IMG/VR virus record: IMGVR_UViG_2778261639_000018
Length of the DNA: 4,432 nucleotides
Strand: one strand, 5' to 3'
Source: a virus
Lineage: Duplodnaviria; Heunggongvirae; Uroviricota; Caudoviricetes
Shown: piece after piece, positions 2,508-4,432 of the stretch
Numbering within the stretch: position 1 is the stretch's first letter
Layout of the letters: every line of letters starts with the position of its first letter
Made by a program: the position numbers and the translations under genes
Notes under the pieces: generated by a model
What the model saw: the letters and a program-made list of their open reading frames with translations, nothing else
What the model was told of the DNA's origin: nothing
Database searches by the model: none

Positions 2508-2560
2508 AAAAGCTGAAAAAAGCCCTAAACATAGGTTCATCCTCATCTGTGAAGGGCTTT
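2508..2560 (-). terminator. Terminator-like hairpin A (8-bp stem AAAGCCCT/AGGGCTTT, 26-nt loop) followed by a T-tract on the minus strand
   Basis: Stem 2519-2526 pairs with 2553-2560. On the minus strand the stem is followed by TTTCAGCTTTT. The loop is long for a canonical intrinsic terminator, so a protein-binding dyad is an alternative reading. Confidence 0.4.
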
Positions 2561-2627: not shown

Positions 2628-2659
2628 TTAAAGAAAACGCCCTAATCATGAGTTAGGGC
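2628..2659 (-). terminator. Rho-independent terminator B for the leftward three-gene operon
   Basis: Perfect 7-bp stem GCCCTAA (2639-2645) / TTAGGGC (2653-2659) with a 7-nt loop. On the minus strand it is followed immediately by GTTTTCTTT. There is no T-tract on the plus-strand side, so the orientation is minus. Confidence 0.55.
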
Positions 2660-2957
2660 AAAGCTGTAAGGGTTCAATAATGAATGATTAAGCACTTTTT
2701 GAGATGACCTCTCAGACTAAACTGAAAGGCCATGACGAAAAGCATTGCACCTTTCCAACTCAGAATATCCATCCATCGGATTATTGAAAATATGATTTTA
2801 GGAAAAATTGCTCTTCCTATATATACAATTATGTCATGCTTAAGATTATTTGTCAACAGCTTTTTAACAGATTGGTAACATCAATTTTTATTTACCGCGT
2901 TGCCCACCCAGCAACCAACAAATAAACCTAAAGCTGTCCAAGCAATTATCAATCCCA

Positions 2958-3360: not shown

Positions 3361-3407
3361 GAGTTGCACTGGCTGGTAATGTAATTTATCAAATTAAGGT
3401 GCAACTC
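3361..3407. repeat. 9-bp perfect inverted repeat GAGTTGCAC / GTGCAACTC enclosing a nested AT-rich 6-bp palindrome
   Basis: GAGTTGCAC at 3361-3369 pairs with GTGCAACTC at 3399-3407. The inner pair is TAATTT (3382-3387) / AAATTA (3391-3396). No T-tract follows on either strand, so this is not a canonical terminator; an operator or RNA processing structure is more likely. Confidence 0.5.
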
Positions 3408-3442
3408 TGCCTGTAAAGTGCATTCTACCGTTACTTAGATGG

Positions 3443-3868
3443 TTATTTTGAATTGTCTTTATTAATCAATGATTTAACGTAGAAATACTGTCTCCGTGAA
3501 ATACCATATTTTTCTGTAATGTATCGCTGAGATTGACCAGCATTTATGGCCTGAGTGATATCATCACGGTTATAGCGGTTACCACGGGATTTATATTTGT
3601 CACCATCCACATCTTCTGAGGTATTGAAGTCTTCAATCAGCTTAATTGCATCGTGAAGGTCATCTTCTGAGGCATAATCGAAGGTATGGATAATCTCAAA
3701 ATCACCAGTATCTGCTGGTGCATTCTTCCATCTGGAGAAGCGGGATTTTAATTGCTGGTGTGTGAAGGGTTCAGCATTACGAGTTAAATCTTTCCATGTT
3801 CCGTTATTCTCACGGACAAGATGACCTCTATGGCGATAAAACGCATGATAATCAAATGTGCATAGCAT
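3443..3868 (-). CDS. 141-aa DNA-binding protein with C-terminal helix-turn-helix, tentatively Mor/C-family (Mu middle/late activator-like)
   Basis: ATG at complement 3866-3868 overlaps the stop of the upstream gene (TAATG), and a GGAGG Shine-Dalgarno lies in the last codons of that gene. The C-terminal segment RDDITQAINAGQSQRYITEKYGISRRQYFYV aligns without gaps to my recollection of the phage Mu Mor C-terminal HTH (RDLRIWNDFNGRNVSELTTRYGVTFNTVYKA) at R, D, G, T, K/R, YG, I/V, S/T and an aromatic pair. This is recall, not a search result. Confidence 0.7.
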   Translation of the reverse strand: MLCTFDYHAFYRHRGHLVRENNGTWKDLTRNAEPFTHQQLKSRFSRWKNAPADTGDFEIIHTFDYASEDDLHDAIKLIEDFNTSEDVDGDKYKSRGNRYNRDDITQAINAGQSQRYITEKYGISRRQYFYVKSLINKDNSK

Positions 3869-4158
3869 TAAACCTCCAATTTATCAGCAAGCTTGCAAAC
3901 CTTATCGCTCAAGACCTGAATCATTGAGCAGCCTGTACCTTTAGTTTGTGTTCTCAGTTCATCCAATTGCTCTACTGTGATACGGATAGCCTTAGAACCC
4001 TCTGCAACGTCCTTGATAGCGTCAAACGGTGTAAGGGCTGTGTGTTCCTTCAGAATCTCACCAACAAGTGCTGTGTGGCTCATGGCTGGGTATTTGTCTT
4101 TGATTGCTGCCAGTCTGGAATATGCCTCTGGCAAAAGGCGCGTAACTGTGTGTCTCAT
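3868..4158 (-). CDS. 96-aa ribbon-helix-helix-type DNA-binding protein, apparently two tandem RHH-like repeats
   Basis: ATG at complement 4156-4158 with AAGGA Shine-Dalgarno about 7 nt upstream; it is the first gene downstream of the divergent promoter. Residues ~2-40 (RHTVTRLLPEAYSRLAAIKDKYPAMSHTALVGEILKEH) and ~58-90 (IRITVEQLDELRTQTKGTGCSMIQVLSDKV) both fit the beta-strand / helix / G-x-S-T turn / helix pattern of Arc, CopG and TraY-type proteins. Confidence 0.7.
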   Translation of the reverse strand: MRHTVTRLLPEAYSRLAAIKDKYPAMSHTALVGEILKEHTALTPFDAIKDVAEGSKAIRITVEQLDELRTQTKGTGCSMIQVLSDKVCKLADKLEV

Positions 4159-4194
4159 TAAATTTTCCTTCTTAAAATCTTTGACTTATAACTA

Positions 4195-4223
4195 ACTTTA
4201 ACATATTTATAACATATTGTCAA
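4195..4223 (-). promoter_or_regulatory. Sigma70-like promoter for the leftward RHH operon
   Basis: On the minus strand: perfect -35 TTGACA (complement of 4218-4223), 17-nt spacer, -10 TAAAGT (complement of 4195-4200; 4 of 6). The predicted start is about 30 nt upstream of the ATG at 4158. Confidence 0.45.
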
Positions 4224-4241
4224 CATCTCATTTACATGATA
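4198..4241. promoter_or_regulatory. Four AACAT/TACAT iterons at exact 11-bp spacing (candidate operator)
   Basis: ACAT cores at 4201-4204, 4212-4215, 4223-4226 and 4234-4237. The first two units share TAACATATT. The array overlaps the -35 elements of both divergent promoters. TTATAAC also recurs at 4186-4192 and 4207-4213. Confidence 0.45.
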
Positions 4242-4245
4242 TTAT
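4217..4245 (+). promoter_or_regulatory. Rightward sigma70-like promoter with extended -10
   Basis: -35 TTGTCA at 4217-4222, 17-nt spacer, TG at 4237-4238 and -10 TATTAT at 4240-4245. A second weaker candidate upstream is TTGACT (4181-4186) with TATTTA (4204-4209) after 17 nt. Confidence 0.5.
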
Positions 4246-4295
4246 GGTTATAGGGGCTGATACAGGTCATTCCCTTTGATAAATAAGGGGAATTA

Positions 4296-4432
4296 ATGGG
4301 CTTTCTTGAAACAATTGCTGAATCTCACAGATTCGCAAGCTTAGGTTGCTTTGTGCTGATGAATCCCCTAATGATTTTGGTAAAAATCATTAAGTTAAGG
4401 TGGATACACATCTTGTCATATGATCAAATGGT
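4296..4432 (+). CDS. Possible 5' end of a rightward gene running off the right edge (partial, product unknown)
   Basis: ATG at 4296-4298 with AAGGGG Shine-Dalgarno 5 nt upstream, about 43 nt downstream of the rightward promoter. The frame stays open for 45 codons to the window edge (MGFLETIAESHRFASLGCFVLMNPLMILVK...). It is hydrophobic, has no recognisable motif, and could be non-coding leader. Confidence 0.3.
   Translation, partial: MGFLETIAESHRFASLGCFVLMNPLMILVKIIKLRWIHILSYDQM

Follow-up and report, generated by a model that had tools for sequence, protein, structure and literature searches.

What is the role of the short direct repeats that lie across two divergent promoters in this stretch of DNA, and which protein, if any, reads them? 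A sequence-only reading of the window (the whole 4,432-nt stretch that was analysed) had proposed that the promoters have overlapping -35 elements, that four AACAT/TACAT units at exact 11-bp spacing span this -35 region and the rightward extended -10, and that these units are an operator bound cooperatively by the product of the first leftward gene, taken to be an RHH protein. At the overlapping elements, a consensus scan returned exactly the two promoters that had been described, with -35 hexamers that overlap by 5 bp.

4195..4223, minus strand: P_left, with -35 TTGACA at 4223..4218, a 17-bp spacer, TG at 4203..4202 and -10 TAAAGT at 4200..4195; start predicted at about 4188.
4217..4245, plus strand: P_right, with -35 TTGTCA at 4217-4222, a 17-bp spacer, TG at 4237-4238 and -10 TATTAT at 4240-4245; start predicted at about 4252.

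Both promoters show 10 of 12 consensus matches together with the TG, and the region common to their -35 hexamers is 4217-4223. The rightward extended -10 was confirmed by the scan (TG at 4237-4238), and the leftward -10 proved to be extended too. The starts are consensus predictions only. Since promoter-like matches are not enriched in the window (9 found versus 11.9 expected), the promoter calls rest on position and conservation rather than on the scan. Across alleles, T1, A2, A3 and T6 are listed as kept in the -10 of P_left, with variation at positions 4 and 5 (TAAAGT, TAAGAT, and TATGAT), while in the -10 of P_right T1, A2 and T6 are invariant and position 3 varies. Judged by these alleles, variation in both hexamers spares T1, A2 and T6 and falls on the least important positions, as it does in real promoters.

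The repeats themselves are arranged as follows.

4199..4237, plus strand: O1, a putative operator array of four direct units at 11-bp spacing.
4199-4204, 4210-4215, 4221-4226 and 4232-4237, plus strand: the O1 units TAACAT, TAACAT, CAACAT and TTACAT, respectively.

The AACAT cores start at 4200, 4211 and 4222 and the TACAT core at 4233, so that the intervals are 11, 11 and 11 bp and the claimed phasing stands. The units occupy positions -16..-12, -27..-23, -38..-34 and -49..-45 of P_left, and -52..-48, -41..-37, -30..-26 and -19..-15 of P_right, and so span both promoters. Such an arrangement rarely arises by chance. In dinucleotide-preserving shuffles of the 137-bp intergenic region, runs in which any 4-mer recurred four times at a fixed interval between 6 and 22 bp were seen in 11 of 5000, and a four-copy run at a spacing of 10-11 bp only once in the same set. 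The pattern WACAT-N6-WACAT occurs three times in the 13-kb island locus (0.2 expected), all three at O1. The longer pattern AACA-N7-AACA-N7-AACA occurs twice in the window, at O1 and at a further array that we call O2, versus 0 in 200 shuffles, and these are also its only two sites in 39 kb of the Escherichia coli MRE162 chromosome.

A possible fifth unit (TAACTA at 4189-4194, 10 bp from unit 1) is present in one allele group only and out of phase in the other, and was left uncounted. We also considered the near-palindrome CATGATATTATG over the rightward -10 as a second, dyad operator. Its symmetry is preserved by alleles ATAT and TTAA; because alleles GGTATTAT and GATACTAT break it, we rejected this candidate and read it as ordinary -10 variation.

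Conservation offers a further view of O1. We collected 15 annotated E. coli loci, 41 metagenome loci and one from a further genome, and aligned the 45 distinct intergenic sequences among them. These loci all come from closely related Enterobacteriaceae and were gathered via the RHH gene, so that the co-occurrence of protein and operator is partly built in. The mean minor-allele counts in the 45 distinct sequences were as follows.

The 24 unit columns: 0.38.
The 11 inter-unit columns outside the -35: 5.0.
The left flank, 4159-4194: 7.6.
The right flank, 4267-4295: 10.5.

The left flank exists as two unrelated alleles and the right flank as three. Even the spacer between units 1 and 2 varies (ATTTAT, TTATTT, and CTATTT), with the spacing fixed at 11 bp. 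In this alignment, near-invariant units beside a drifting spacer and drifting flanks form what looks like a footprint, part of which may reflect promoter function, since the units resemble -35 hexamers (TTAACA and TTTACA).

O1 is not unique. O2 is a three-unit array in the identical register at another leftward promoter.

2855..2881, plus strand: O2, a putative operator array, with AACAG at 2855-2859, AACAG at 2866-2870 and AACAT at 2877-2881, at 11-bp spacing.
2828..2856, minus strand: P_left2, with -35 TTGACA at 2856..2851, a 17-bp spacer, a TG and -10 CATAAT at 2833..2828; start predicted at about 2821.

Of the promoter-like sites in the window, P_left2 scores highest in the consensus scan (11 of 12 matches), and its -35 overlaps the first O2 unit. 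The array begins in TTGTCAACAG, in which TGTCAA is the P_left2 -35, and its register relative to TGTCAA equals that of O1 at 4218 (+4 and +15). The O2 units lie at -38..-34, -49..-45 and -60..-56 of P_left2. O2 is kept in nearly all related loci of both subfamilies that carry these arrays, with fixed AACA cores and spacing and with variable spacers (GATTGG, ACCCGA, ATCTGA, and ATCTGG). We found no array near recombinase genes or island ends in the 39 kb scanned, where O1 and O2 are the only ones.

We also observed that P_left2 and an intrinsic-terminator-like hairpin at 2660..2638 bound a transcript of ~190 nt (2630-2821, minus strand), with a predicted fold of -52.6 kcal/mol versus -39.7 ± 3.7 for shuffles (z = -3.45). 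A hairpin formed by its first 25 nt stays paired although the stem sequence varies by locus (GAGAGAATTGCTCTC, GGATAGAAGACTATCC, and GGAAGAGTTGCTCTTCC), and a second terminator-like hairpin was seen by eye near 2556..2515. This transcript, which lies in a 560-bp non-coding gap (2399-2957), may be an sRNA or a regulated leader.

More distant relatives were compared as well. In the P0038 subfamily, the protein is 29-36% identical (about 33%) and retains H3, T4 and R7 in its first predicted strand and I58, R59 and I60 in its second, and the overall gene order is unchanged. The P0038 promoters are also back to back, with -35 hexamers that are adjacent, not overlapping. Two TAACA[TA] units 11 bp apart lie over the rightward -35 and spacer, and two inverted TGTTA[AT] units, again 11 bp apart, lie in the transcribed leftward leader, downstream of the -10; these islands also carry the O2 array. 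The P0038 spacers differ and the spacing is constant (eight distinct sequences), and TAACA-N6-TAACA occurs three times in one such locus, L061, versus 0.01 expected. Overall, the exact 11-bp spacing is retained in five separate arrays. In the third subfamily, P0034 (locus L058), the intergenic region is 58 bp long and contains no clear array, and a search of this locus for a replacement motif revealed no more than a weak [AC]ACA periodicity on the upstream side and, downstream of the gene, an AGAGC repeat that is unrelated. The latter has three copies of AGAGC(G/A)T, spaced by 10 bp (TAGAGAGCGTTACAGAGCGTTATAGAGCATG; L058 3300-3690), and lies just 3' of the divergent RHH homologue. Present in a locus without clear TAACA arrays, it may correspond to a different operator specificity.

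What kind of element carries these arrays? Positions 3400-4355 of the window are 100% identical to E. coli MRE162, in which they belong to an 11.7-kb insert between tonB and yciI (L063 24697-35669). This island starts with a large serine recombinase, a baseplate-annotated protein of 256 aa that also matches endolysin and tail-fibre PHROGs, and a tape-measure-like protein of 710 aa (Pfam TMP_3). These are followed on the minus strand by genes for 71-, 234-, 108- and 141-aa proteins and by the gene for the 96-aa RHH protein, and then by a plus-strand gene of 61 aa, another gene of 96 aa, and genes for a 319-aa Rep-like protein, a Dam methylase and a small serine recombinase. The island has no capsid or terminase genes, and no partition NTPase gene (ParM or ParA/ParF) was annotated or detected in its 11.7 kb. 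The 234-aa protein is a "transposase" in RefSeq, an annotation that found no support in Pfam, NCBIfam or PHROGs. Of 5426 complete E. coli genomes, 127 contain the 488 bp around O1, with identities of 74-100%. Since phage and plasmid collections contained nothing similar to the O1 region, the island could not be assigned to a known phage, and a literature search on a tonB-yciI island returned nothing relevant. It looks like an undescribed satellite-like or degenerate element.

Two further observations concern its gene content. First, the 319-aa Rep-like gene contains four 22-bp direct repeats in tandem (GTMAAAGATTTTGACTSAGTGR-like; L001 7894-7981), a lambda-O-like origin arrangement that, from its sequence, would imply autonomous replication of the island. 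Second, the position 3' of the RHH gene (3443-3868 and its equivalent in L002-L015) is a cassette that holds a gene for 141 aa, 128 aa or 71 aa, or none, between constant flanks. The 141-aa gene, which meets the RHH gene in overlapping start and stop codons, encodes a C-terminal HTH-like segment.

On the rightward side, P_right faces a small gene that is cut short in the window.

4269..4293, plus strand: leader hairpin that pairs with the Shine-Dalgarno of the small gene (ViennaRNA folds of 13 distinct leaders).
4296..4355, plus strand: first 20 codons of a small membrane-protein gene, 61 aa in intact islands and truncated here.
4356..4432, plus strand: outside end of an IS10-type element (annotated ISVsa5), which interrupts the small gene after codon 20 and runs off the window.

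The intact gene (L001 6897-7082) encodes MGFLETIAESHRFASLGCFVFLVLLVYQLL..., a protein with one hydrophobic segment that belongs to a narrow uncharacterised family with no known relatives outside the island family. A small gene of this type stands opposite the RHH operon in all three subfamilies. The leader hairpin is kept by three alleles with different stems (ATTCCCTT/AAGGGGAAT, TTTCCTTT/AAAGGAAA, and CCCCT/AGGGG), i.e., by compensatory change. The rightward leader as a whole is no more stable than shuffles (z = -0.63), and support is confined to the local Shine-Dalgarno hairpin. This hairpin suggests translational gating, as for small toxic proteins, and one might speculate that a gated and tightly repressed small membrane protein is a toxic product. 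Intact related islands continue uninterrupted, and differently, after 4355. The last 77 bases of the window occur at 6329 places in E. coli genomes, beside an IS4-like ISVsa5 transposase gene, and an insertion at the 4355 junction was absent among the best-ranked matches in the 5426 complete E. coli genomes. Because a partial Rfam RNA-OUT match (4401-4432) is on the minus strand, the outward promoter of the element would read leftward, towards the operator. Speculatively, the insertion would inactivate the 61-aa gene here.

On the leftward side, the first gene after P_left encodes the candidate regulator.

3868..4158, minus strand: gene for a 96-aa protein, predicted to be a single-chain tandem RHH protein.
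About 4165-4170, minus strand: its Shine-Dalgarno, AAGGAA (complement of these positions).

A first AlphaFold2 model was weak (pLDDT 64.5), and with the distant subfamily added to the alignment pLDDT rose to 82.3, with a pTM of 0.75. The model consists of a strand (3-8), a helix (10-22), a helix (28-37), a linker, a strand (56-61), a helix (62-72) and a helix (79-93). It contains two strand-helix-helix units with strands paired as an antiparallel ribbon over a four-helix core, and both halves of this pseudo-dimer are in one polypeptide, joined by the linker. The sequence-only reading was right that an RHH fold is predicted for this gene product. It needs refining as to the kind of RHH protein, which would be a single-chain pseudo-dimer like TraY or AvtR, not one of the ordinary dimer-forming type. 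A single-chain pseudo-dimer is intrinsically asymmetric and would fit direct-repeat rather than palindromic sites. The O1 sites are direct and non-palindromic, and the P0038 islands have inverted pairs, which is consistent with a monomer that binds asymmetric subsites. The strand residues H3, T4, R7, I58, R59 and I60 are invariant across the subfamilies that have the TAACA motif.

Sequence searches place this protein apart from known families. In Pfam, searches with the whole protein, its halves and its distant homologues returned no RHH family up to E = 10, the sole RHH-related match being a weak one to DndE (E about 0.05-0.09). NCBIfam and PHROGs gave no match to the 96-aa protein, a profile search of the PDB gave only MazE7 (E = 0.99), and a profile search of 1.8 billion representatives returned only eight clusters, all of this island family. 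The family is narrow, with 33 clusters in Escherichia, Shigella and Citrobacter. When its N-terminal and C-terminal halves were compared using BLASTP, there was no internal repeat and no detectable similarity. At the start of the gene in L039, L054 and L055 (equivalent of 4146-4155), we observed in-frame duplications of a TGTGTGAGT-type unit of 6-9 bp, which extend the N-terminal arm just ahead of strand 1; the tblastn matches of L054 and L055 begin at residue 7.

Our answer to the opening question is that the array is probably the operator of the 96-aa product of the first leftward gene, and we give the whole chain, binding and repression included, a probability of roughly 60%. O1 would be a composite operator on back-to-back sigma-70 promoters with a common -35 region. 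Each asymmetric pseudo-dimer monomer would read one asymmetric TAACA(T) unit, and monomers 11 bp apart would line up head to tail on one helix face, possibly cooperatively. Given the positions of the units relative to P_left and P_right, a filled O1 should exclude RNA polymerase from both promoters; the leftward operon would then be autorepressed and the rightward small membrane-protein gene repressed. O2 would place the downstream leftward transcript under the same regulator, and at -38..-60 of P_left2 either repression or activation might result. In this scheme, we infer from sequence the binding by the 96-aa protein, the cooperativity and the sign of regulation at each promoter.

Three other explanations were weighed. 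The operator could be real and have another binder, either a different island product or a host factor, for example a winged-helix regulator of the Apl/Cox/Xis type; we consider this unlikely. One-turn direct repeats are the signature of RDF-type (recombination directionality factor) regulators, 186 Apl among them, and the island does encode other putative DNA binders, namely the 141-aa product with its HTH-like C-terminus and the 319-aa protein with its replication-initiator and winged-helix matches; the conserved 234-, 108- and 71-aa proteins have no assigned fold. However, the operator stays constant where the gene after the RHH gene changes (141 aa, 128 aa, 71 aa, or none), and many islands with an unchanged operator have another gene in place of the 141-aa one, or lack it. 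As for the Rep-like protein, no gene of its size was called in the P0038 islands, which nevertheless have TAACA arrays, and it has 22-bp iterons of its own. The strand residues of the RHH protein are, by contrast, invariant wherever subfamilies share the TAACA motif. RDF-type regulators combine a winged-helix or HTH fold with att sites, whereas the 96-aa protein has a predicted RHH fold and neither array lies next to the recombinase genes or the island ends.

It is also conceivable, if improbable, that there is no dedicated repressor and that the units are promoter architecture, i.e., -35-like hexamers, the TG of extended -10 elements, AT-rich DNA of the UP kind, or a phased bend that would help RNA polymerase at two competing promoters. 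The overlaps are real: unit 3 shares bases with both -35 hexamers, the C-A/T-G of each extended -10 comes from unit 1 or unit 4, TTAACA and TTTACA both agree with the -35 consensus at five of six positions, and the upstream unit in the P0038 islands is the predicted -35 itself. Sigma-70 sequence reading does not, however, extend to unit 2 or to the O2 units at -49 and -60, which are yet conserved beside varying spacers, and the inverted pair of the P0038 islands is in the transcribed leader, 3' of the -10. The exact spacing in all five arrays also speaks against this explanation.

That the units are a replication origin element, with strict iterons bound by the Rep-like initiator of the island, is highly improbable: this protein does match phage replication-initiator families (PHROG E-values down to 2e-11), but the canonical 4 x 22-bp direct repeats sit inside its own gene (L001 7894-7981) in a lambda-type-origin-like arrangement, whereas the AACAT units are 5-6 bp long, spaced by 11 bp, placed exactly on promoters ~1 kb from the Rep-like gene, and present in islands without a called gene of Rep-like size. 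The label "iteron" that had been given to them is a misnomer, since replication iterons are repeated in tandem, measure about 17-22 bp and lie at or within the initiator gene, and the true ones (4 x 22 bp) are inside the Rep-like gene, outside the window.

Operator function for the 96-aa protein, our preferred reading, would provide an uncharacterised E. coli island, almost all of whose proteins are without a family assignment, with a regulator-operator pair that can be tested. It would bring a transcription factor from bacteria into the very small set of natural single-chain RHH proteins (TraY, VirC2, AvtR, and DndE) and would tie pseudo-dimer asymmetry to a direct-repeat operator. With two strong promoters, one -35 and a four-unit array, the locus would be a compact natural switch that could serve promoter-competition studies or synthetic circuits. 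A bolder version is possible but rather unlikely: a new bacterial family of single-chain RHH regulators would behave like Apl/Cox, form directional head-to-tail filaments on one-turn direct repeats, and act as the master switch of an undescribed 11.7-kb integrative island. In this version, since all four units point one way across the common -35, the competing promoters might be silenced at different levels of occupancy, and the switch would choose between a long leftward operon and a small, translationally gated, possibly toxic membrane protein. Most likely, this is an ordinary kind of gene switch and a new family of it, which leaves current understanding in place.

How does this arrangement compare with known systems? 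[quoted passage not shown] Arc is, however, a 53-aa homodimer that binds as a tetramer to a 21-bp palindromic operator, whereas here there would be one chain per pseudo-dimer and there are four direct repeats; no sequence similarity was found between the two.

The closest parallels to a single-chain protein are AvtR and TraY. AvtR of Acidianus filamentous virus 6 (PDB 4hv0), a monomer of the tandem-RHH type, acts as an autorepressor and covers about 100 nt of the DNA that separates two promoters (PMC5569661). It differs in being archaeal, with TATA/BRE promoters instead of sigma-70 ones, and in its proposed site, an imperfect inverted repeat instead of 11-bp direct repeats; no sequence similarity to the 96-aa protein was detected. 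Monomers of F TraY occupy neighbouring direct and inverted subsites and make extensive contacts with one another (bioRxiv 10.1101/2024.12.19.629322). TraY (PDB 9f0x chain E) is a relaxosome accessory protein at oriT, whereas here the sites are on promoters and there is no relaxase or transfer gene. Structural alignment of the 96-aa model with TraY gave 14% identity, and the protein has no TraY Pfam match.

For the layout of the sites, 186 Apl and P2 Cox are close parallels. Both are first-gene products that bind cooperatively and head to tail on one-turn direct repeats, which overlap two opposed promoters, and repress both of these (PMC7498355), and their binding geometry, with direct repeats one turn apart, is shared by O1. 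They are HTH or winged-helix proteins, whereas an RHH fold is predicted for the 96-aa protein. Their promoters face each other at a distance of 40-60 bp, unlike the back-to-back pair with a common -35 described here, and Apl also binds att, whereas here no array lies near recombinase genes. Partition systems offer a further likeness: the RHH proteins of ParR-parC and ParG-OF/parH cover sets of short repeats that surround their own promoter. For R1 ParR, two 11-bp direct repeats are the minimum (PMC9426499), and TP228 ParG places one dimer per 4-bp box, with AT-rich spacers and flexible box orientation (PMC3130281). Unlike the protein predicted here, these RHH proteins are dimers, the ParG boxes recur every 8 bp, and a ParM or ParA/ParF ATPase gene accompanies them in the same operon, whereas the island has no such gene. 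Taken together, these comparisons suggest that AvtR, TraY, Apl/Cox and ParR/ParG provide, by analogy, a precedent for every step of the proposed switch.
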